Below, in pieces: positions 9,357-63,361 of a DNA stretch of 64,000 nucleotides. Within the stretch, counting starts at the first letter, position 1, and each line of letters begins with the position of its first letter. The DNA is from Stegostoma tigrinum. Its lineage: Eukaryota. The notes beneath the pieces are model-generated. The model did not search any database, was not told the DNA's origin, and was given only the letters and a program-made list of their open reading frames with translations. The stretch lies in the NCBI RefSeq assembly GCF_030684315.1, contig NC_081382.1, forward strand, positions 16,846,592 through 16,910,591. Reading direction: 5' to 3'. The position numbers and the translations under genes are program-made.

Positions 9357-9620
9357 TGATTGATGCACCAAGCCATGTAGAAGTAAACAAAGTCACAGAC
9401 TCCACTGCTCACATTACCTGGTTCAAGCCAGCTGCCCAAATTGAAGGAATTAGCCTGTCCTATGGGATTCCAAATAGCGAGAAGACAACAATTGACCTTC
9501 CTGACACAGAGACAGCCTATTCCATCGCCAAACTTCACCCGGATACCGAATATGAAGTCTCTCTGATTTCCAAACGAGGGGACATGAGAAGCATTCCGGC
9601 TGTTAATACATTCACAACAG
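9357..9620 (+). CDS. TNC: TNC exon, FNIII-3 (264 nt), contains RGD
   Basis: ccacag|TGATT...ACAG|gtaatc. Encodes [37 protein letters not shown]...[27 protein letters not shown], close to human FNIII-3 (LDAPSQIEV...ISRRGDMSSNP). Confidence 0.95.
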
Positions 9621-9934
9621 GTAATCAGTATTTTTAAATTACTGAAATCATTTGTAACAACTGGTCTTCAGCCAACCTTTTCTCCTTTCTCTAGCAGTCC
9701 CATTTCCATCACTCATGTCACCCAGTTTCTTCCCTCTCTCTTTCTGCTGCAAAGAACCACCCATTTCATACTGTTCTCTATCACTCTCCTGTACAAGGCT
9801 CACTGAGCCACTGATATGCTAGCTCCTGTCCTCATTCTACCTCATCATTCTGCACACTCATCTCTGCATCTGTGTCTCATTCATGCCAACTCGCCATTGT
9901 TCGCTTAATGTCTACATTTTTTTTCTTTTAATCA

Positions 9935-11020
9935 TGATCTTATTTAAGAAAAGTTGTATGGAAAAGCCTGGTAACTATAGACTGATGAATCTGACATCGG
10001 TGGTGGGTAAGTTGTCAGAGGTAATTCTAGATGACAGGATTTACATGCATTTAGAAAGACAAGGACTTATTAAGGATAGCCAGCATGACTTTGTGCATGA
10101 GAAATCATGTCTCACAAAATTGATTGAGTTTTTGAAGGTATAACCAAAAACATTGATGAGGGTAGAGTGTTAGGCATGGTCAATATGGATTTTAGTAAAG
10201 CCTTCAATAAGGTTCCGCATGTTAGACTGGTTAGTAAAGTTAGATCATGAGGGACTCAGGGAAAGCTCATCAATTGGATACAAAATTGGCTTGATGGTGA
10301 GAGACAGAAGATGGTGGTGAAGGGTTGATTTTCAGACTGGAGGCCTGTGACCAGGGATGTTCTTTCTCATTTTCTAAATGTTTTGGATGAGCATTTAGGA
10401 GGCATAGTTTGTGAATTTGTGGATGACAATAAAATTGGTGATACAGTGGACAGTGATGAAGGTTATCTAATATTAAAAAGAGGTCTTGATCAATTGGGCC
10501 AATGGGATAAGGAGTGGCAGATTGAGTTTAATTTGGACAAATGCATGTTGTTGCATGTTGGTAAGACAAGCAAAGACAGGAATTACACAGTTAATGATAG
10601 GGCCCTGAGAAATGTTGTCAAACAGAGAGACCTAGGAGTTCAGGTACACAGTTCCTTCAAAGCTGCATCACAGGTAGACAGGGTGGTGGAGAAGGCATTT
10701 AGCATGCTTGCCTTCATTGCTTGGACCACTGAGTATAGAATTTGGGGTGTCATGTTGCTGTTCTTGGATGTTGGCGGAGGCCACTTTTGGAATACTGTGT
10801 ACAGTTCTGATCACCCTGTTGGAGGAAGGATATTATTAAATTGGTAAGTGCAGGTACAGTTAAAACATTTAAAGACTTTTGGACAAGGACATGAGTAGAA
10901 AGGTTTAGAGGGATTTGGTCCAAATGTCAACAAATGAGAGTAGATTAATTTAGGAAACTTGGTCAGCATGGATAATTTGGACCAAAGCGTTAGTTTCCAT
11001 GCTATATGATTCAATGACTA
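9935..11020 (+). mobile_element. 5'-truncated degenerate CR1 LINE
   Basis: KPGNYRLMNLTSVVGKL, KSCLTKLIEF, EFVDDNKIG, WQIEFNLDKC and RDLGVQVHSS, with stops and internal deletions; CR1-type 3' end. Confidence 0.9.
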
Positions 11021-12123: not shown

Positions 12124-12309
12124 ACCTTGATGCTCCCAAAAACCTCAGAAATGAGTCTCAAACAGATGAAAGCATTACCTTGGAGTGGGAGAACACCAGA
12201 GCTGCTGCCGATAATTACAAGGTTAAATATTCACCACTGGCAGGAGGAGAACATAGGGAACTCACCGTCAAAAGGAGCAATCAATCAACTACTAAAATTA
12301 AGATTTCTG
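12124..12309 (+). CDS. TNC: TNC exon, FNIII-4 N-half (186 nt)
   Basis: Polypyrimidine tract, tag|ACCTTGAT...TCTG|gtaata. Encodes DLDAPKNLRNESQTDESITLEWENTRAAADNYKVKYSPLAGGEHRELTVKRSNQSTTKIKIS. Confidence 0.95.
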
Positions 12310-15711: not shown

Positions 15712-15975
15712 ACTTGGACAGTCCAAAAGACTTGAAAGTGATTGAGACAACAGAGAACTCAATTACTCTGACGTGGAAACGACCACTAGCAACAGTAGAC
15801 CGTTACTACATCATCTATATCTCATCCACCGAAGAGAAGAATGAGGACATTGTGGCAGCTGATGCAGTCTCCTACATCCTGACTGGGCTTGCCCCTGCAG
15901 CTGAGTACAACATTATCCTTATAGCACAGCGAGGTAAACAGAAGAGCAGGGCTTCCACCATCACTGCTTCTACAG
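15712..15975 (+). CDS. TNC: TNC exon, FNIII-5 (264 nt)
   Basis: tgcag|ACTTG...ACAG|gtaagg. Encodes DLDSPKDLKVIETTENSITLTWKRPLATVDRY...EYNIILIAQRGKQKSRASTITAST. Confidence 0.95.
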
Positions 15976-18462: not shown

Positions 18463-21400
18463 TTAGAACACGGAACTGTACAGGACAGGAACGGGCCTTT
18501 CAACCCAAATTGTTGTGCCAAACATGGTGCCAAATGCAACTAACCCCATCTGTCTGCCATTGGCCCATATCCTTCCACTCCATGCATATTGATATGCTTA
18601 TCCAAAAGTCCCTTAAATGCACCTATTTTGTCTACCTTCATCTCCACCTTTGGCAGTTCCAGACTCCTACCATGCTCTGTGTAAAAAATGTGGTCCTCAC
18701 TTCTTCTTTGAACTTTCCCCTCTAACCTTAAATGCATACCCCCGAGTACGAGACCCTTGAACTTTCAGAAAATGATTCAGACCTTCAACCCTGTCTATGC
18801 ATCTCATAAATTTCCAGACTTCTATCAAGCCTCCTCTCAGCTTGCGCCACTCGAGAGAAAACAACCCGAGATTTTAGAACATAGAACATAGAACAGTACA
18901 GCACAGAACAGGCCCTTCAGCCCACAATGTTGTGCCGACCATTGATCCTCATGTATGCACCCTCAAATTTCTGTGACCATATACATGTCCAGCAGTCTCT
19001 TAAATGACCCCAATGACCTTGCTTCCACAACTGCTGCTGGCAACGCATTCCATGCTCTCACAACTCTCTGCGTAAAGAACCTGCCTCTGACATCCCCTCT
19101 ATACTTTCCACCAACCAGCTTAAAACTATGACCCCTCGTGCTAGCCATTTCTGCCCTGGGAAATAGTCTCTGGCTATCAACTCTATCTATGCCTCTCATT
19201 ATCTTGTATACCTCAATTAGGTCCCCTCTCCTCCTCCTCTTCTCCAATGAAAAGAGACCGAGCTCAGTCAACCTCTCTTCATAAGATAAGCCCTCCAGTC
19301 CAGGCAGCATCCTGGTAAACCTCCTCTGAACCCTCTCCAAAGCATCCACATCTTTCCTATAATAGGGCGCCCAGAACTGGACACAGTATTCCAAGTGCGG
19401 TCTAACCAAAGTTTTATAGAGCTGCAACAAGATCTCACGACTCTTAAACTCAATCCCCCTGTTAATGAAAGCCAAAACACCATATGCTTTCTTAACAACC
19501 CTGTCCACTTGGGTGGCCATTTTAAGGGATCTATGTATCAGCACACCAAGATCCCTCTGTTCCTCCACGCTGCCAAGAATCCTATCCTTAATCCTGTACT
19601 CAGCTTTCAAATTCGACCTTCCAAAATGCATCACCTCGCATTTATCCAGGTTGAACTCCATCTGCCACCTCTCAGCCCATCTCTGCATCCTGTCAATGTC
19701 CCGCTGCAGCCTACAACAGCCCTCTACACTGTCAACGACACCTCCAACCTTTGTGTCGTCTGCAAACTTGCTGACCCATCCTTCAATCCCCTCATCCAAG
19801 TCATTAATAAAAATTACAAACAGTAGAGGCCCAAGGACAGAGCCCTGTGGAACCCCACTCACCACTGACTTCCAGGCAGAATATTTTCCTTCTACTACCA
19901 CTCGCTGTCTTCTGTTGGCCAGCCAATTCTGTATCCAAGCAGCTAAGTTCCCCTGTATCCCATTCCTCCTGACCTTCTGAATGAGCCTACCATGGGGAAC
20001 CTTATCAAATGCCTTACTGAAGTCCATATACACCACATCCACAGCTCGACCCTCATCAACTTTTCTAGTCACATCCTCAAAAAACTCAATAAGGTTTGTA
20101 AGGCATGACCTACCCCTCACAAAGCCGTGTTGACTGTATTTGATCAAGCCATGCTCTTCCAGATGGTCATAAATCTTATCCCTCAGAATCCTTTCTAACA
20201 CCTTGCAGACGACAGACGTGAGACTTACTGGTCTATAATTGCCGGGGATTTCCCTATTTCCTTTCTTGAAGAGAGGAATTACATTTGCCTCTCTCCAGTC
20301 CTCAGGTATGACTCCAGTGGAGAGCGAGGATGCAAAGATCTTCGCAAGTGGCGAAGCAATTGCATTTCTCGCTTCCCAAAGCAGCCGAGGACAAATCTGT
20401 CGGGCCTGGCGACTTGTCAATCTTAATGTTTGACAAAATTTTCAGCACATCAGCTTCCTCTATCTCTATCCATTCCAGCATGCACACCTGCTCTTCAAAG
20501 TTTTCATTCACTAAGGTTTCATTTTCTAGCCTTCCTTCTTAGCTCATGACCTCTAATCCAAGCAGTGGCTTGGTAAACCTCTTCTGCACCCTCTCCAAAC
20601 CTCCAAATCTTTCCTGTAATGTGGCAACCAGGATTGAACCCAAAACTTTAAATATGGTCTAACAAAAGTCTTATAAATGCTGCAACATGACATCCTGACT
20701 CTTGAAATCCATTCCCCAACCCAAGCATGTTTATATGCCTTCTTTACCACCGTATCTCCTTGCGTGATTACTTTCAGGGAGCTATGGACTTGAACCCCAA
20801 GATCCTTCTGTACACCAGTACTGTTCAGGGTCCTGCCATTAACCACACACTTTTTCCGAACATTTGATCTCCCAAAGTGCAACATACCTCACATCTGGAT
20901 TAAACTCCTTCTGTCATTTCTCTGCCCATATCTGCAACTGATCTATATCCTGCAATCTCCTTCAACAACTTTCTACACTATCCAAGACACCAGCGATCTT
21001 CATTTCATCCACAAACTTACTAACCAACCAACTACATTTTACATATACTCCGAACAGCAGAGGTCCCAGTATGGATGTCTGCGGGACACCACTAGACACA
21101 AAAAGTGTCAGCCTGAAAAACACCCTTCTATCACAACCCTGCATCTTCTATGTGTAAGTTAATTCTGAATCCAGGCAGCCAAGTCACTGTGGATCCCATG
21201 CATCTTAATCTTCTGGATGAGTCTACCATGATGGGCTTTGTTGAAATCCATACTAAACTCTATGTAAATAACATCCGCTTCTCTACCCCCATTGATAATC
21301 TTCATCACCTCCTCGAAAAATTCAATCAAGTTGTTAAGAGATGACCTGCCCTGCACAACGCTACGTTGGCTATCCCCAATTAGGCCATGCTTTTCTAAAT

Positions 21401-21537
21401 GTACATAAGTTCTACCCTTAAGAATTCTCTCCAATAGCTTCCCAACCACCAATGTGAGACTCGCGGTCTGTGGTTTCCTGGATTCTACCTATTTCCCTTC
21501 TTGAACAGAGGAACAACATTAGTTGCACGCCAGTTTT
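18463..21537 (-). mobile_element. Older degenerate CR1 LINE split by a nested young CR1 (parts 20526-21537 and 18463-18870)
   Basis: Fragmented RT ORFs (VVGKLLERIL, SGVPQTSILGPLLF, KDLGVQVHSS). The sequence reads continuously across the inner insertion. Confidence 0.88.
18876..20520 (-). mobile_element. Young 5'-truncated CR1 LINE with open RT ORF (18963-~20400)
   Basis: About 480 aa without stops, including NYRPVSLTS, DFSKAFDKV, GVPQGSVLGPLLF and KFADD. Has a (TTCTATG)n tail and TSD ATTTT (18871-18875, 20521-20525). Confidence 0.95.
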
Positions 21538-22340: not shown

Positions 22341-23690
22341 ATACAGTTAAATAAAGCCCTTCACCTGTGTATCTTGATAAGATACCATTAACACAGATAA
22401 AGGCAAGCACTTGTTTTGTGGAGGCTCAATAAAAGGATTATTTCTTGGCCCTGATGAATTAATTTGTGCTCCCAATTGTCGCCTATGCCACCTCTCACTA
22501 TTACCCTCTCTCTAAAAATCCCCTTTCTATTGTTTCTGTAACTAGCAGGCAGCTCTTGACCACCATATCATTCACTGTCAGGAAGGACTCCGTATGAACT
22601 TCCACACACCCATGTCAAATATGTTTGCTGGTTAACCCATATCACTCACAGCATTCCACCGAGAGGAAACTTAACTCATTAGAACAGGATCCCAATGGAA
22701 ACCAGTTCCCTGTTTGAATCTACATCTCATTCACTTCCATACGGAATCGGGCAATGAAAACTGAAAATGCGTTACTGAATATCTTTAAGACATTAGCCAA
22801 GTTTTGAAAGAAAAATTCTGAATCTCTGAAACTCAAAAGTGAGAGAGAAAATGCTGAAAATACATAAGCCCAGGGAAAGTATAGGGAAAAGTTTAAGCTG
22901 GATTGATGTTTTCAATGTTTGTTCTTTATTACATGAAGCTATGTTGAAAGACTTTCACAGGATGTGGATCAATTTGTGGTTAATATCCAGCAGTTGCTGT
23001 TGTATATCTATATTATTGTAGGGATTTTGTGAGGAGTAACTACACATAAAGCTTTGTAAAGGCAAAACACTTCTCCAATCGGGCACGATACTCTTCCCAA
23101 TAGATATTTTAACAGCTTGGCTTTTTTTTTCACCTGCTCAATTCTTCATAAATTACCTCAAGCAATTATGTGAGAATTTCAAAATAGTTATGTACTGCAA
23201 TTACTGGGCTAGGATAATTTCAATATCGTTTCAACATCCCAAATGTAGTCTCATCATTTTGAGAGTTATTCACTGCTGTCCTGCCAGGCATGACTGACAT
23301 TTTTTGGTTAAAAGTTCCATTGCTTGATCAATCAAATGTTTTTTCCATCATTATTCTGATGGCAATGTAAACTGACACATAAAATTTATCCTTCTATTTA
23401 GCTACCAGCTGCACAAAATTGCAGTCCTAAAATAATTATTGACGTGTCCGGCTGTAATTATTGAGATCTCCAGGTATTTCAGTGTCTGTTTCAAAGAACT
23501 GTACATTTACAATAAGTATTACAGAAATGAAAAAAATGGACAGTTTTTAAGAGCAGTGGGGGATAAGTTGAAAAATGTACAGATTGTACATTTTTTATTT
23601 CATATTGTCACGTTCAAAGGAATACATATCATGAACATATTACCGCATGGATTTATACGCAATTCTCTACTCTTTAAAAAAATTCCACAG

Positions 23691-23957
23691 GCCTTGAAGC
23701 ACTGCGAGGTCTTAAATTTTCTGAGATAACTCCCACAACTACCTCAGTGGCTTGGGAAGCTCCTTTAGCTCCCGTTGACATGTTTGTTGTGAACTATAAT
23801 CCTAAAAGCCACGGAGAAACGCAACAGGTTATTGTGAAGGGAGACCAGACCACAGTTGCTCTCACTGATCTGAAGCCTGCCACTGAGTATGTGGTGACAC
23901 TTATGGCTCTTCGAGGCACAGCAAGAACAGAGCCCTTGGTCGGATCTGTCACTACAG
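23691..23957 (+). CDS. TNC: Variable-region exon V1: FNIII repeat resembling the tenascin-R alternatively spliced repeat (267 nt)
   Basis: ccacag|GCCTT...ACAG|gtactt. Encodes GLEALRGLKFSEITPTTTSVAWEAPLAPVDMFVVNYNPKSHGETQQVIVKGDQTTVALTDLKPATEYVVTLMALRGTARTEPLVGSVTT; open and frame-preserving. Confidence 0.9.
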
Positions 23958-26195
23958 GTACTTCACCAAATACTGTAGCTCCATCTTAGTAATGTTTACT
24001 AACTGTTCAAATCATGTGATTGCTGCTGCACGTGAAACATCTTTTTGAAGGGCAAGCTATGAGCTGCAACATATTTTGTGAATCCTATATAAGAATAGGA
24101 TTTACTGGAAATATGTGAGCTTTCCCAAGGTTGACTCCATGTGATCCCTGCTGGATGTAGTCAGTAGAATGCCAATCTTTCCCACTCATCCTTCAGACAT
24201 CTATGGTATTGGCATCAACGAAGCATTTCAACTGGAACCTGCCTGACTAAACATAAACTTTTAACAAAATGACATCTATGTTAGTCTTGGTACAAGTCTG
24301 CAAACAATTTGTTGATTTTACTTAACATGGCCCCATGTTAAGCTTAAAGCTCTGCGTAAGCTGTTTACAATGTAATATATGTTAGAAAAAACTAACATAT
24401 GGTGAGGTATCTCACCATGAGATTTACAGCTTGTTTGAAACTTTATAAAATAAATGGATTGTTGCTTTTTCCAGCATGAAGGCCAAGTAATAATATTGAA
24501 ATATAAAGAACTCTATTGTGGAGAGTTACTTTAAAATCATTTATTTCAATAGCTACCACTAACTCATAACACTTACCCACGTCTCTGTGTGTGCGTACAT
24601 GCATGTAAGCAATAGCAAACAAAACTATGTATCGAAAAATGTTGGTGAAATTAACAACTTATTTGATATCAGGAAAACAATTCTTCAATGCTACTCTCCT
24701 GCAATTTTGACAAGAGAAAGCATAAAAGTCTGTGATTTTGCGGGTTATACCAAACCGGATGCCAAAAGTTTTCAGGTAAAAATACTATTCCGTGCAAAAA
24801 TAGAATTAACACCATTTTGAGCTGGCATGGTAACAAGCAATCAGATTGGAAATATACTCATGAGGCAATTTTAATGTTTAAACCTCAGCAATAAATGCTA
24901 CCATGCATTAAACAAGTTCTGCAGGCAACCCTCCCTGCTGTGCCTACTGCAATAGGAAAATATTTTCACTCAAAGATAAATTACAAAATTACATTCTCTT
25001 GTACTATTAATTAAATTATCTTGCAGTTATTTCTATTCCAATCCCTTGCTGAGGGTATCTTACATCACAATGTTTCACTCCTAACAGTGAGCTGTTTCTC
25101 AATGCTGAAAGAAGTGTTGCTAAGAGATCCATAGAGTGGAGAGGTAGAAGCTCAGAAGTATGTAATTTAAGGCAGAATTCCAAGTCTCTCAATTTTGAAA
25201 TATGTGTAACCTGTGAATGCTATGAACAATGTGTTCAGAATCCTCAGTTTTCAAGCAATTATTGAGAAAGTAGTGTACCCCCCTTGATCCCTGGTTTTGC
25301 TATTCACGGGGTTGTCCACATTCCAGCCCTCAGTTTATACAGAAGAGTGGTATCAGAGGACTCAAAATATCAGAAAGATTGACCTGAACTGCCTCCTCTG
25401 CCAAAATCCTGGACGTAATATTTGCATCCGATATTTGTTCCAAATGCATTGGATCTGTCCAAATTTTACAGCATTGGAATTTTTTATCCAAGATTTAGCT
25501 TAATGGTATCCATGACATTATTTTCCTACCTGACAATCCTGGCCATGATAGGATCTAACATTGATAAAAAGGAAGGGAGATGAGGCATGGATAGGATCTA
25601 CCAGGAGGTCGCTTATCAGCCTAAACATCTGGAGGTAGTGATGGATTTCTTAAAGGAATTCCCATTTATGACCTTCAGCCCCACCATGACACCCTTCCTG
25701 ACCCTTACACAAAAACACTTCGGTCTGGCCAAAACACATTAGCATCTGTTTGGGGAAGCCCAACATTGGAGTGCCGCATGAGCAGACAAACTGGAAAATG
25801 GGACACACTATGTTCTTATGAAGACGGTTCCAGTCCACTCACACTAACTTTGGGCCTGAGCACGGACCTGTACCCTATTTCCAACTCCTACCAATTTTCA
25901 GGGAACAATTTTGCACTGTTTTAATCGAAAAGCTGGCTGATTGTTTCTAACACTGTGTTTTTATTTGCATATAATTAGGTCACTTGCAGGAACCAAGAAG
26001 AAAGCTAATTCATTCAATTGCATCTTTTTCAGGCTATTAACTTTATTTTTAAGAGCTTAAGTATAATCACTGTAATTCCAGATACAGCAGCTGACAACTA
26101 CTTGTGATTAAACAATGCAAACAATTGTAACAATTTTCCCTTCTTCAATACTACTGAACAGATTTGAACTAAAATATTTGAACTACCTTTTGTAG

Positions 26196-26591
26196 CAATA
26201 TTGGAGCCAGCATTCACAGATACTCTGGAGGAGACTGCCACTCCTCCTCCTTACGGAAGAATAACATCCACAGTTGTTTCCTTGATATTAGAAGCTTCGG
26301 TGCCTGAGTTTTCTGGGACTGGTGATGGTGAACTCAGTAACCTAACTGTTTCCAATGTAACCTCGGATGGTATCAAACTTTCCTGGATGGCAGAAGTAGG
26401 ATTCTATGACTATTTTATCATAAAGTATAGAAGTGAGCTTGGAAACGATGGTGAGACAGAGATCTCCGTGACTGGTGATGATTTAGCTGCTGAAATAAGA
26501 GGCCTAATGCCCTCCACTCCTTATAAGATATCTCTTTATGGAATTGCTGGCAATCAACATTCAGAGCCGCTGAACATTATAGCTACCACAG
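26196..26591 (+). CDS. TNC: Variable-region exon V2: linker + FNIII (396 nt; alternative phase-1 acceptor giving 26292-26591)
   Basis: ttttgtag|CAATA...ACAG|gtattt. About 43-aa T/P/E-rich linker, then ELSNLTVSNVTSDGIKLSW...GLMPSTPYKISLYGIAGNQHSEPLNIIATT. The 5' boundary is less certain than the 3'. Confidence 0.85.
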
Positions 26592-27619: not shown

Positions 27620-28006
27620 CTGTCTTAAACAACCCACTTGGCGAGCTGATAGATCATACAACATCCCTCACTGCTCGACTGCACAAAGACGGAAGTTTTA
27701 ACCATGGCCCCACATTTGATTCAGAGAAAGGGGTGTTGCATAGTAAACTGGGAAGCCTTGCTGTGGTAAATGCAACTTCCAAAAGTATTAAGCTCTCTTG
27801 GACTTTGCAAAATGGATCTTTTGACAGCTTTCTTATAGTGGTCACAGATTCCACTGGGCTATATGGACCACTGGAAATGGCCCTAAATGGTGACTTACGT
27901 AGCACGGAGGTAACGGGTCTCTTGGATAGTACACATTATAAGGTATATTTATACGGATTTGTGGGAGAGTGGCGTTCAGATCCCTTGAATGCAGAAGTCA
28001 CAACAG
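27620..28006 (+). CDS. TNC: Variable-region exon V3: linker + FNIII (387 nt; alternative acceptor giving 27725-28006)
   Basis: tttttag|CTGTC...ACAG|gtattt. Linker AVLNNPLGELIDHTTSLTARLHKDGSFNHGPTFDSEKG, then KLGSLAVVNATSKSIKLSW...GLLDSTHYKVYLYGFVGEWRSDPLNAEVTT. Confidence 0.85.
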
Positions 28007-36279: not shown

Positions 36280-36588
36280 AATCCTTTGACAGTACCACCA
36301 CACATTCTCCAACCTCAGGAGCTGCCAAACCAGAGAACCTTCTGGTAAAAAATGTAACTTCCACCAGCCTCAAGGTATCATGGACAGCACCGAGTGGACA
36401 CTTTGATAGTTTTCTTTTAATAATAAAGGATATTAATGCATTGAGTGTCCCTTTGAAGATTTCCCTACCAGGTGATCAGCATACAACTAATGTAACAGGG
36501 CTGGTAGCTGGCACTCAGTACGAAATTGATCTTTATGGAATATTCCAAGGCCGGCTCTCGCAACCACTGAAAGATTTTGCAAGAACAG
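36280..36588 (+). CDS. TNC: Variable-region exon V4: FNIII with possible S/T-rich linker (acceptor uncertain: 36193, 36280 or 36319)
   Basis: Encodes AAKPENLLVKNVTSTSLKVSWTAPSGHFDSF...GLVAGTQYEIDLYGIFQGRLSQPLKDFART; donor ACAG|gtattt. Three in-frame phase-1 AGs lie upstream. Confidence 0.85.
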
Positions 36589-38843: not shown

Positions 38844-39107
38844 AATCTGAACTTGAAAACTTAATGGTCTCGGAAGTTACCTCCGGCAGCTTCAAACTCT
38901 CTTGGACAGCTGATGAGTCCTTTGAAAGCTTTGTTATAGATGTTAAAGACTCAGATGGGTTGTTCGAACCATTAACATACACAGTACCAGGTGATCAGTA
39001 TTCCATAGACATCCCACATCTGCGTGCTGCTACTGACTATGAAATCTCCATCTATGGTATAAGTCACGGTCAGCAAACACGACCACTATACACTGAAGCT
39101 CAAACAG
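38844..39107 (+). CDS. TNC: Variable-region exon V5: FNIII, A-type-like (264 nt)
   Basis: gccag|AATCT...ACAG|gtattt. ESELENLMVSEVTSGSFKLSW...SIDIPHLRAATDYEISIYGISHGQQTRPLYTEAQT resembles human A1 (VDIPGLKAATPYTVSIYGV). Confidence 0.92.
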
Positions 39108-41820: not shown

Positions 41821-42090
41821 CGACTGAACTCAAACTTAGCAACCTAATGATTTCCAATATTACTTCAGATGGTTTCATTGTCTCTTGGACAGCCAATGGC
41901 ACCTTTGAAAGCTTTGTAGTAGATGTAACAGATCCTAACAGGATCTTCGAAACCTCGGAGCTCATTGTCCCAGGCAACCATCGTTCTATTGGCATCTCAA
42001 AGCTGTTAGCCAGCACTGATTATGTCATTTACCTCTCTGGCCTTTATCAAGGACAGCAAACTCAAACGCTTAGTGCATTTGCTACAACAG
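41821..42090 (+). CDS. TNC: Variable-region exon V6: FNIII, B/AD2-like (270 nt)
   Basis: tttcctcag|CGACT...ACAG|gtattt. Encodes ATELKLSNLMISNITSDGFIVSW...STDYVIYLSGLYQGQQTQTLSAFATT. Confidence 0.92.
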
Positions 42091-43142: not shown

Positions 43143-43415
43143 AGGCAGAACCTGAAGTGGGCAACCTAGTGGTTTCAGACATTACCTCAAACAGCTTCAG
43201 CCTCTCTTGGACGGGAATGGACGAGGCATTTGAAAGCTTTGTCATTGAACTTATAGATTCTGACAGGTTCACAGAGCCACTGGAGTACACAATACCGGGC
43301 AACGTGCAAACCACCCAACTCTCCAACCTCATAGCTGGCACTAATTATGTGATTTATTTCTATGGTCTTGTCAATGGCCGACGTACAATTCCTGCAACTA
43401 CTGTTGTATTGACAG
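43143..43415 (+). CDS. TNC: Variable-region exon V7: FNIII, B/AD2-like (273 nt)
   Basis: ccttatag|AGGCA...ACAG|gtactt. Encodes EAEPEVGNLVVSDITSNSFSLSWTGMDEAFESFVIELIDSDRFTEPLEY... Confidence 0.92.
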
Positions 43416-44769: not shown

Positions 44770-45030
44770 AAGTCATAAAGTCCCTACAGAGTGGAAGCAG
44801 GTCATTCAGCCCATACCAACCCTCTGAATTGCGTCCCACCCAGATTAACCCTGGTAACGCTGCATTTTCCAACAGCTAATCCACCTACATTGCACATCTT
44901 TGGACTGTGGGAGAAAACCTGTATAGACACAAGGAGAATGTGCAAATTCCACACAGACAGTGGCCCAAGGGTAAAATTGAACCTGGGTTCCTGCTGCTGT
45001 GAGGCAGCAGTGCTCGCCCCTGTGCCACCC
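44770..45030 (-). mobile_element. tRNA-derived SINE (HE1/V-SINE-like)
   Basis: Same head and core as 6720-7013 on the reverse strand. Confidence 0.75.
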
Positions 45031-45307
45031 TAAGTTGTAAATCAATTTGTGTGATTCACAACTTAAGGTAGTGCTTCCTCACCACAAACTGATCAACAAC
45101 TTCCACATGAATAACAACAGCACATTAACTTATCATTTTCCCAGCAAATTCTGGCACATAATCTTCAGCTTTGAATAAAATTTCCAAAATGCTTTTATAT
45201 CTGAAGATTTCTTACGATAAGCATGCAGTAGCATGTTCTGCATATTGGGCTGAATTAGCACCAGAGGTTGTAGCTCCTTTGTGTGGGGCACTCATCAATA
45301 ATACTGT

Positions 45308-45506
45308 CAATACAGTGTGGAGCTGGGGGAATGCAGCAGGTCAGGCAGTATCACAAGATCAGGAAAGTTAATGCTTCTATTCAGGGCTCTTCATCAGGAT
45401 CCCAATCCGAAATGTCAACTTTCCTGTTCCTCTGACCTGCTGTGTTCCTCCAGCTCCACACTCTACTGATTCTGACTTTCAGCATCTGCAGTTCATGCTG
45501 TCTCCT
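45308..45506 (+). repeat. Palindromic Penelope-terminus-derived element (older copy)
   Basis: AGTGTGGAGCTGG...CCAGCTCCACACT arms and tail CAGCATCTGCAGTT; AATACTGT direct repeat on both sides. Confidence 0.7.
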
Positions 45507-45576
45507 ATCAATACTGTGTCTGTGTAATTGTTTCAAGGCATGCTTTATCTAAATAAAAACATGATTGCATGTATAG

Positions 45577-47258
45577 GCCCTCCGCTTCTTCCCGCACCGC
45601 AGACCCGACCAGATCCCCTTCACCGACACCCTCATCTGCCTAGCCGAACTTGTCCTCACCCTCAACAACTTCTCTTTTGATTCCTCCCACTTCCTACAGA
45701 CAAAGCGGGTGGCCATGGGTACCCGCATGGGCCCAAGCTATGCCTGCCTCTTTGTAGGTTATGCGCTAACAGTCCCTCTTTCGCACCTACACCGGCACTA
45801 AACCCCACCTCTTCCTCCACTACATTGATGACTGTATCGGCACCGCCTCTTGCTCCCCAGAGGAGCTCGAACAGTTCATCCACTTCACCAACATCTTCCA
45901 CCCCAACCTTAAGTTCACCTGGGCCATCTCCAACACATCCCTCACCTTCTTGAACCCTTCTGTCTCCATCTCAGGCTACCACCTATAAACCGATATCCAT
46001 TTCAAGCCCACCAACTCCAACAGCTACCTAGAATACACCTCCTCCCACCCACCTTCCTGCAAAAATTCCATCCCCTATTCCCAATTCCTTCACCTCCACC
46101 GCATCTGCTCCCAGGATAAGGCATTCCACTCCCATACATCCCAGATGTCCTCGTTCTTCAAGGACCGCAACTTGCCCCCGCAGTGGTCGAGAATGCCCTT
46201 GACCATGTCTCCAGCATTTCCCACACCTCATCCCTCACACCCTGCCCCCGCAATAACCGCCAAAAGAGAATCCCCCGAGTCCTCACATACCACCCTACCA
46301 ACCTCCAGATACAACGCATCATCCTCCGACACTTCCGCCATCTACAATCTGACCCCACCACTAAAGACATTTTTCCAACCCCAGCCTTGTCTGCCTTCCA
46401 GAAAGACCACTCTCTCCGCAACTCCCTTGTCTGCTCCACACTCCCCTCCAACCCCACCACACCCAGCTCTTTCCCCTGCAACTGCAGGAAGTTCTACACT
46501 TACCCCCGCACCACCTCCCTCACCCCCATCCCAAGCCCCAAGATGACTTTCCACATCAAGCAGATGTTCACCTGCACACCTTCCAATGTGGAATACTGTA
46601 TCCACTGTACCCATTATGGCTTCCTCTACATTGGGGAAACAAAGCGGAAGCTTTGGGACCTCTTTGCAGAAGACCTCCGCTCGGTTCGCAATAAACAACT
46701 GCACCTCCCAGTCGCAAACCATTTCAACTACCCCTCCCATTCCTCTGACAACATGTCCATCCTGGGCCTCCTGCAGTGCCATAATGATGTCACCCGTAGG
46801 TTGCAGGAACAGCAACTCATATTCCGCTTGGGAATCCTGCAGCCCAATGATATCAATGTGGACTTCACAAGCTTCAAAATCTCCCCTCCCCTCACTGCAT
46901 TCTAAAACCAGACCAGCTCGACCTCACCTCCCTAACCTGTTTTTCGTCTCACCTATCCCCTCCTTCCACCTCAAGCCGCACCTCCATTTCCTACCTACTA
47001 ACCTCATCCTACTTCCTTGACCTGTCCGTCCTCCCCGGACTGACCTATCCCCGCCCTGCCTCCCCACCCATACTCTCCTCTCCATCTGTCTTCTCCTCTA
47101 TCCATCTTTGGTCTGCCTCCTCCTCTGTCCCTATTTATTTCAGAATCCTCTCCCCTTCCCCATTTTCTAATGAAGGGTCTAGGCCCAAAATGTCAGCTTT
47201 TGAGCTCCTAAGTTGCTGCTTGGCCTGCTGTGTTCATCCAGCTCCACCCTTTGTTGTC
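45577..47258 (+). mobile_element. 5'-truncated Penelope-like element (RT + GIY-YIG endonuclease + terminal repeat)
   Basis: FLQTKRVAMGTRMGPSYACLF, YIDD (45821-45832), FTCTPSNVEYCIHC...LYIGET and LIFRLGILQP. Pyrimidine-rich 3' UTR, a few frameshifts, and TSD TTGCATGTA(T/C)AG (45565-45576, 47259-47270). Confidence 0.9.
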
Positions 47259-48149
47259 TTGCATGTACAGTATTGTAGCATTCATATTTACTAAGGACTA
47301 ATTCTAAATACCCTTTCATATTACTTTGCTGATGGAAGCTATTACATGTCTGTCTCATGTGAAATGGCTACTGTACTTAACATGGAAACCATTTTTGCTT
47401 CAATTCTACACTTGTCTTCCGAAAGGTCCGTATGAAACTGTAGGCTATCGCTGTGTTTTGGTAGCTGCTGACTTAAGTTCTGCTGAGCAAAGGATTTTTT
47501 TTTAATGTTGGTTTTCATTTCCAGCTTGGATTAATAACTGTGAGCAGATAACATGCCAGGGTATTTCACATATATGATGAACTCTGCTCAGCTGTTCTGA
47601 TGTGTGCCAAGGTTATGAGTATGAGTCTCACAAAATGGTAACACAAGTGTGGAAATAAGTTATTACAGACAAGGGCTAAAAGTAACAGTATTTGGCCTTT
47701 TTTGAGGAAAATCTAGAATGCATTCCTTGGACTTATTAAGAATTTCAATAGTGATTACGGGCTACTTATTATCTGGCATTAGAAATAGTTACAGTTGAAC
47801 ATTTACCATTGTAAATATATTTTATCCAAAAATATTTACATAGAATTAGCAGCATCAGTAGGCCAATCAGCTCCTCAAGCTTTCTCCGTCATCTTTCAGG
47901 ATCACTACTGGTATGATTCTGACCTCAACTTTCCTCGTTATCCCTTTCAACTCCCTTGTCAATCAAGGATCTACTTAACTCTGTCTTTAAAAATATTTAA
48001 TGACGCTGCCTCCAATGCTCTCTGGTGAAGAGAATTCTACAAAGCCACAACCTTCTGAGAAGAAAACAATGATCTCAACTCGGTTTTAGTCGGAAAAGCC
48101 TTCTTTTTAAATTGTGTCACCTAGTTCCAGTTTCTCAGTCAAGGATAAA

Positions 48150-51234: not shown

Positions 51235-51507
51235 AAGAAGAAGCTGAACTTGGCAACCTAGTTGTTTCAGATATTACCTCAGAAGGCTTCACGCTCTCTT
51301 GGACAGCAGAAGATGAGGCATTTGATTATTTTATCATAGATGTTAGAGACTTTGACAGCTCGCTTGATCCAATACAGCAAGTTCTATCAGGGAAAACACG
51401 AACTACTGACATCTCAGGTCTAGTAGAAGGCACTGGATACCAAATTAATGTCACTGGCGTAATTCGAGGCTGGCACTCACAACCTCTCACTGCTCTCACC
51501 ACTACAG
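51235..51507 (+). CDS. TNC: Variable-region exon V8: FNIII, AD1-like (273 nt); missed by the ORF track
   Basis: cttccttcctttag|AAGAA...ACAG|gtactg. Encodes EEEAELGNLVVSDITSEGFTLSWTAEDEAFDYFIIDVRDFDSSLDPIQQVLSGKTRTTDISGLVEGTGYQINVTGVIRGWHSQPLTALTTT. Confidence 0.92.
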
Positions 51508-55305: not shown

Positions 55306-55578
55306 AGCAAAAACTCAAAATGGAAAACTTAGTGGTTTCACACATAAACTCTTATGGATTCAAAATCTCTTGGAACGCAACGGATGGGGCCTATGAAAAT
55401 TTTGTTATAGTGGTTAGAGATTCTGGCAGGTTGTTGGAGCCAATGGAGCACAGAGTGCCAGGCGATCATCACTCCATTAACATCACTGGTCTGATCACTG
55501 GGATTGGTTATGATATTAATATCTATGGTGTAACCAATGACCAGCAATCTAAGCCCCTATTTACTAAGACGGCAACAG
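55306..55578 (+). CDS. TNC: Variable-region exon V9: FNIII-C-like (273 nt)
   Basis: tctccag|AGCAA...ACAG|gtattt. Motifs INSYGF, DSGRLLEP and GLITGIGY match human repeat C (INPYGF, DSGKLLDP, GLITGIGY). Confidence 0.93.
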
Positions 55579-57776: not shown

Positions 57777-58049
57777 AAGCTGAACCTGAAGTGGACAACT
57801 TAGCAGTTTCTGATGTTACCTCAAATGGCTTCACACTCTCTTGGACAACAGATGAGAATGTCTTTGATTACTTTAACATTAGAATTAGGGATTCCAGAAA
57901 AGAAACTTCACCGTGGGACTTCACAGTGTCAGGGGAACTCCGAACAACTAACATCACAGACTTACCTGATGGCACTGAGTATGAGATTTCCTTGGTTGGC
58001 ATTTCAGAGGGACGATATTCGCAGCCAGTAAATACCATTGCAACCACAG
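57777..58049 (+). CDS. TNC: Variable-region exon V10: FNIII-D-like (273 nt)
   Basis: ccctcag|AAGCT...ACAG|gtatta. EAEPEVDNLAVSDVTSNGFTLSWTTDENVFDYFNIRIRD...TEYEISLVGISEGRYSQPVNTIATT matches human repeat D. Confidence 0.93.
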
Positions 58050-59986: not shown

Positions 59987-60109
59987 CATTAGGAGCTCCT
60001 AGATTTCTGCAGTTCACAGATGTCACCGACACTACAGTGACAGTCTGGTGGGACATTGAGAGTAGCTACATCACCAACTTCAAGATTATTTATGTGCCAA
60101 CTGATGGAG
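59987..60109 (+). CDS. TNC: TNC exon, FNIII-6 N-half (123 nt); missed by the ORF track
   Basis: ctctttgacag|CATTA...GGAG|gtaaga. Encodes ALGAPRFLQFTDVTDTTVTVWWDIESSYITNFKIIYVPTDG. Confidence 0.92.
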
Positions 60110-60587: not shown

Positions 60588-60731
60588 GTCCAAGTAACAC
60601 CGTGACAGTCGATGGCAGAAAGACTCAAACTATACTGAGGAGGCTCACCCCAGCTACTGAATACAAAATCAAAGTCATCGCTGTTAGAGGGTTTGAGGAA
60701 AGTGAACCAGTTTCAGGCACAGTGCACACAG
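60588..60731 (+). CDS. TNC: TNC exon, FNIII-6 C-half (144 nt); missed by the ORF track
   Basis: ttttctcag|GTCCA...ACAG|gtaaag. Encodes GPSNTVTVDGRKTQTILRRLTPATEYKIKVIAVRGFEESEPVSGTVHT. Confidence 0.94.
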
Positions 60732-63241: not shown

Positions 63242-63361
63242 CATTGGACAGTCCATCAGAATTGAGAGTTGTGAAGGTCACGGATTCTGAAGCCCTACTG
63301 ACATGGAAACCCACAATTGCTACAGTAGATGAATATGTGCTCAGCTTTCATGCTGAGGGTG
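63242..63361 (+). CDS. TNC: TNC exon, FNIII-7 N-half (120 nt)
   Basis: gacag|CATTG...GGTG|gtaagg. Encodes [40 protein letters not shown]. Confidence 0.93.

Follow-up and report, generated by a model that had tools for sequence, protein, structure and literature searches.

The sixth FNIII repeat of tenascin-R (TNR), named R, is alternatively spliced (PMC7820773; PMC5660115). Human tenascin-C (TNC) consists of eight constant FNIII repeats and the variable repeats A1–A4, B, AD2, AD1, C and D, which are optional single-exon modules between repeats 5 and 6; in these sources R is attributed to TNR only (PMC5660115; PMC4422809). For chimaera TNC, 18 FNIII repeats have been reported (Adams and Tucker; PMC4422808; PMC11401434), and the count obtained here is also 18 (eight constant repeats, one R-type repeat and nine V-type repeats). 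These two studies provide domain counts and FReD trees, and their main-text passages contain neither a homology assignment for single repeats nor an R-type repeat in TNC. The history of the tenascin family has so far been built on FReD comparisons and synteny (PMC11401434). In the passages searched, the literature describes no R-type repeat for TNC; sequences displayed in figures and tables of PMC4422808 and PMC11401434 may bear on this point. The exon described below is already contained in public gene models, where it stands without comment.

The window (the whole stretch of DNA analysed, 64 000 nucleotides of contig NC_081382.1 of the shark Stegostoma tigrinum) comes from one of three tenascin loci in this genome, located on contigs C37 (the window gene), C10 and C44. 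The window gene has the domain plan of tenascin-C, with many EGF repeats, eight constant FNIII repeats, a variable cassette between repeats 5 and 6 and a FReD, and two database proteins that carry NCBI labels of shark tenascin isoforms (P0005, P0010) match window exons exactly. In a FReD tree the gene falls into the TNC clade (95/93) together with chimaera, ray, gar, bass, reptile and bird sequences, while the TNR and TNX branches take in the C10 gene and the C44-type protein, respectively. On C37 an astrotactin gene (ASTN1 or ASTN2, 14.1–14.7 Mb) and PAPPA1 (15.75 Mb) lie 2.1–2.8 Mb and 1.1 Mb upstream of the TNC gene (16.83 Mb); on C10, TNR is accompanied by PAPPA2 and a second astrotactin gene. 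Pappalysin exons were located with a LamG profile and a PDB search; the PF05572 profile found none. Both arrangements agree with PMC11401434, which places PAPPA and astrotactin genes beside TNC and TNR. The preliminary description of this DNA had named TNC as the host gene and had asked for synteny as a check, and the FReD tree and the PAPPA1 and astrotactin neighbours bear it out. Several nine-repeat TNC models (P0009, P0101, P0102 and P0115) carry an automatic name, tenascin-R or tenascin-R-like, whether the R-type repeat is present or absent in them. At the TNR locus itself, the EGF exon recurs downstream of FNIII-1 as a second copy interrupted by stops (L030, G000:C10:7772171-7772491), and the NCBI TNR model P0017 is without FNIII-1.

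The R-type exon occupies 23691..23957 of the window on the plus strand, between an acceptor AG that ends at 23690 and a donor GT that starts at 23958. It is intact, 267 nt long and of phase 1-1. The coding frame is offset by two bases from the first letter of the exon, so that full codons begin at 23693 and give 88 stop-free residues; frame 1 from 23691 contains many stops. The translation includes VVNYNPK and the C-terminal end LKPATEYVVTLMALRGTARTEPLVGSVTT, the two motifs quoted in the preliminary description. The product scores 51.8 bits against Pfam fn3 (PF00041), above the cut-off, and the AlphaFold2 model of the domain is all-beta with seven strands (mean pLDDT 90.4). A PDB sequence search returned generic FNIII matches only (fibronectin, tenascin constant repeats, monobodies) and an ESM Atlas search generic fn3 clusters. 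Mapping of isoform models places the exons for constant FNIII-3 (9357..9620), the first part of FNIII-4 (12124..12309) and FNIII-5 (15712..15975) upstream, all on the plus strand like the other exons of the gene given here. No FNIII exon was mapped between repeat 5 and the R-type exon, downstream of which come nine V-type exons and then repeat 6, split over two exons (59987..60109 and 60588..60731); the first exon of FNIII-7 (63242..63361) was placed by the same mapping. The exon is thus, as first described, the first after FNIII-5, and it is without the signature of the variable repeats, to the nine of which in its own gene it is 20–32% identical. Its splice sites, isoform mapping and spliced joins (see below) confirm 23691..23957 as a real FNIII-coding cassette exon of shark TNC.

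Within the shark genome, this exon has its best paralogue in the sixth FNIII exon of TNR on C10 (89 bits); the other 27 matches reach at most 40 bits. The two repeats are 47% identical and share their position between repeats 5 and 6, the size of 267 nt and the phase 1-1. Identity of the R-type repeat to the 17 further repeats of its own gene is 20–38%, repeat 6 being the most similar of these (38%). The eight pairs of constant repeats in TNC and TNR are 30–51% identical, a range that contains the value for the R pair, as expected if R diverged together with the two genes. A profile built solely from the R repeats of five bony-vertebrate TNR proteins was scored on 163 tenascin repeats. Among the 22 best of these 163, the two shark TNR R repeats score 94 and 90 bits, three chondrichthyan TNC R-type repeats 83–86 bits and all others at most 69 bits, so that R is set apart from repeat 6 by at least 13 bits. 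R-like scores of FNIII proteins other than tenascins, at most 54 bits, were set aside as generic. All R repeats form one clade in four maximum-likelihood trees, with 96.4 SH-aLRT, 94.6/91, 97/97 (LG+G4) and 91/96 (mixture model), and in a FastTree run without the lamprey row (0.973). These trees cover 87–89 columns and chosen subsets of 117, 92 and 44 repeats, which leave out near-identical TNX repeats and most isoforms, and in the 44-row set also hagfish; TNR is represented by shark, sturgeon, frog and teleost sequences. Together, these comparisons support the reading of the exon as the counterpart of the alternatively spliced sixth repeat of TNR, as the preliminary description had supposed. 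The TNC copy differs from the TNR repeat in its setting on the PAPPA1 paralogon and in the nine V-type exons that follow it and are absent from TNR.

Like its counterpart, the exon is optional. It is included in 41 of 99 chondrichthyan TNC models, always (41/41) directly after repeat 5, and skipped in the remaining 58; among the models that match the window gene it is present in six of 12. Joins were read from contigs of related species, assembled from runs for which RNA as the source is a guess; the contigs cover the R-type exon and not the introns. The join between repeat 5 and R is seen in X3 and X5, whose upstream part reaches the end of repeat 5, and in X12, which runs from repeat 5 into the start of R. 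On the other side, X3 passes via GT..AG to the second acceptor of the first variable exon and X5 continues into the start of that exon, whereas X2 leads directly to repeat 6, into which it extends by just nine letters. In X3, X5 and X8 the repeat-5 contig halts exactly at the donor, as is expected at a branch. Two Logan proteins (P0085, P0097) skip R. These models and joins accord with the initial expectation that the exon is spliced in. X1 was dropped as splicing evidence, since it covers introns and behaves as DNA, and contig depths were not taken as an estimate of inclusion. R is an in-frame cassette that can be freely combined with the V exons, and an isoform with repeats 1–5, R and 6–8 has exactly the nine-repeat layout of TNR. 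A sturgeon TNR model (P0280) lacks R.

Of the 21 other chondrichthyan species whose TNC models were scored, 17 have the R-type repeat, among them sharks, skates, rays and a chimaera; the four species without it were represented by two cluster representatives each. Among the 16 elasmobranchs with the repeat, R ranks first in conservation of all FNIII repeats, alone or jointly, in 15 (84–99%), and its median conservation over the 17 species is 89%, compared with 61–85% for the other repeats. Chimaera R (67%) is not the highest among the chimaera repeats. Across elasmobranchs, strands C, F and G hardly vary. Bony vertebrates were represented by 27 TNC models, taken from gar, several teleosts, tortoises, anole and birds and including a sturgeon fragment. 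An R-type repeat was found in none of them, not even in long isoforms with multiple V repeats; these models are protein predictions, some of them partial, in which an unannotated exon would be missed, and mammals, amphibians and the coelacanth, lungfish and bichir lineages are outside the sample. Where the bony TNC model is complete, the best R score belongs to repeat 6. The best 120 of 4992 entries in the homologue search were mostly chondrichthyan isoforms, with few bony TNC sequences and none from mammals; for the representative search, the best 150 of 15 920 were considered. The preliminary description had proposed that the exon was kept in this lineage and lost in mammals. Retention is borne out by the chondrichthyan models, but a loss specific to mammals is improbable given the absence of R from the 27 bony models, none of which is mammalian; judged from these predictions, R probably disappeared from TNC long before mammals arose.

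The variable exons of the shark gene belong to a different family. They comprise V1 (26196..26591, a linker of ∼ 44 residues followed by a V-type FNIII repeat, with a second acceptor at 26292) and V2 (27620..28006, linker and FNIII), both placed by mapping and contigs, as well as V3 (36280..36588), V4 (38844..39107), V5 (41821..42090), V6 (43143..43415), V7 (51235..51507), V8 (55306..55578) and V9 (57777..58049). In the tree, V9 joins the variable repeat that stands last in the TNC of tortoise and gar. One clade (100/97, and 99/98 under the mixture model) unites the V repeats of TNC (shark, chimaera, gar, tortoise and bird), the internal repeats of TNX and repeats from lamprey. In all best trees R lies outside this clade, which distinguishes it, in this comparison with non-human V repeats, from the variable repeats of TNC that it resembles in being optional. 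The original suggestion that the exon links the variable regions of TNR and TNC holds for their position and for this exon; it does not extend to the classical V repeats, which go with TNX and lamprey. TNR has no member in the V clade (window 26196-58049; TNX, G000:C44:22300154-22367596; P0174 and P0295). A scan of the shark TNX locus on C44 found no R-type repeat. This locus contains about six near-identical 2.7-kb units with two FNIII exons each (G000:C44:22314456-22328565), and two FNIII-5-like repeats precede its V array. In lamprey, one tenascin (entries P0295, P0242 and P0147) has an R-like repeat after repeat 5, followed by a V-type repeat in two of the three entries. The resulting 5-R-V-6 layout of P0295 is weakly supported: its R-like repeat lies inside the R clade in the best trees, but three alternative placements are not rejected (p-AU 0.18–0.33) and the repeat is outside the best 22 of the bony-TNR profile. 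The TNR-like lamprey isoform P0298 shows a partial V-like repeat (26 bits) between repeats 5 and 6.

We consider it quite probable that the cassette exon R of TNC is the duplicate of the sixth repeat of TNR, both going back to the split of one ancestral gene, and that bony-vertebrate TNC lost it early. R could instead have been born within shark TNC, when repeat 6 or repeat 5 was duplicated in tandem, or be an early offshoot of the V repeats, its likeness to TNR then reflecting slow evolution or convergence. Repeat 6 is indeed the next most similar repeat, and the sister group of R varies with the method, being repeat 6 in two maximum-likelihood trees and V in FastTree; a grouping of TNC-R with the V repeats has p 0.26 in the AU test and is not rejected. 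However, TNC-R does not cluster with the constant repeats of its own gene, the fate that the preliminary description had considered fatal to its proposal: the AU test rejects its grouping with TNC repeat 6 (p 0.0017, and 0.0016 under the mixture model) and with TNC repeat 5 (p 8e-5). Repeat 6 is also encoded by two exons and R by one, and a profile made from TNR alone parts the two. We regard such an independent birth as highly improbable. An exon copied from TNR into TNC in the ancestor of cartilaginous fishes, by gene conversion or exon transfer, would account for the restriction to chondrichthyans without any loss, bony TNC never having had R. In the alignment a stretch in the C–C′ region is nearly identical in shark TNC-R and shark TNR-R and differs in bony TNR-R, a pattern that an old conversion would also yield, and the grouping of TNC-R with shark TNR-R alone is not rejected under LG+G4 (p 0.10). 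The mixture model does reject it (p 0.034), and in the best trees shark and bony TNR-R join inside the R clade (96/85, 96/82). TNC-R is no closer to shark TNR-R (47%) than to sturgeon TNR-R (48%), the two genes are on different contigs, and third-codon-position identity between the two shark exons is 35%, which excludes a recent conversion. A transfer from TNR thus appears unlikely, if somewhat less so than an independent birth.

Of the alternatives, the one to be taken most seriously accepts the same homology and differs in the timing of the loss. The TNC of some bony vertebrates, such as coelacanth, lungfish or bichir, may have retained R, which would then have been lost several times, or may contain it as an unannotated exon. 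The sample of bony models is without these three lineages, and the 58 chondrichthyan models that skip R, even where the exon exists, illustrate that models can miss it. Against this stand the 27 bony models, long multi-V isoforms among them, and a word-based search with the R-type exon that retrieved 13 proteins, all from elasmobranchs; the latter search is weak and limited to 2000 residues. We give a late persistence roughly the weight of a minority view. In the favoured reading, the ancestral tenascin would likely have had the layout 1–5, R, V, 6–8. TNR would then have kept R and lost V, TNX would have kept and expanded V, and the TNC of cartilaginous fishes would have retained both, whereas that of bony vertebrates would likely have dropped R early. 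More tentatively, and with somewhat less than even confidence, we suggest that the first vertebrate tenascin already had an optional region with R followed by V, still seen in shark TNC and in one lamprey tenascin, from which, after genome duplication, TNR took R, and TNX and bony TNC took V. R splicing would have been optional in two paralogues throughout jawed-vertebrate history, and a TNR-shaped shark TNC would present a conserved R surface to a putative partner shared with TNR. The age of R, the order of the losses and the function of R are what we infer here from the comparisons.

The optional R repeat of TNC is better conserved among elasmobranchs than any constant repeat, and because of this we lean slightly towards the view that inclusion of R may add a conserved protein-binding surface; the alternative is that it serves as a mere spacer. 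The high conservation points to residues of interest in the R domain of TNR, which is poorly understood and for which no function turned up in the literature passages searched. An optional domain thought peculiar to TNR has a counterpart in TNC, which adds a character for tenascin history and a concrete ancestral layout for the vertebrate tenascins. The proposal that TNX arose from TNR has to be qualified, since TNX has V-type repeats in common with TNC and is without R. The result is a modest one in domain evolution, of specialist interest, and involves no new mechanism.

Two further features of the window were observed. The linker before V1 (26196-26330) ends in an acidic Ser-Gly motif, which gar and teleost TNC also show ahead of their first variable repeat; this motif might be a glycosaminoglycan attachment site. 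Use of the second V1 acceptor removes most of the linker and retains its end. Intronic clusters of open reading frames at 9823-10847, 18963-21488 and 44779-47294 resemble, by eye, putative fragments of retroelements.
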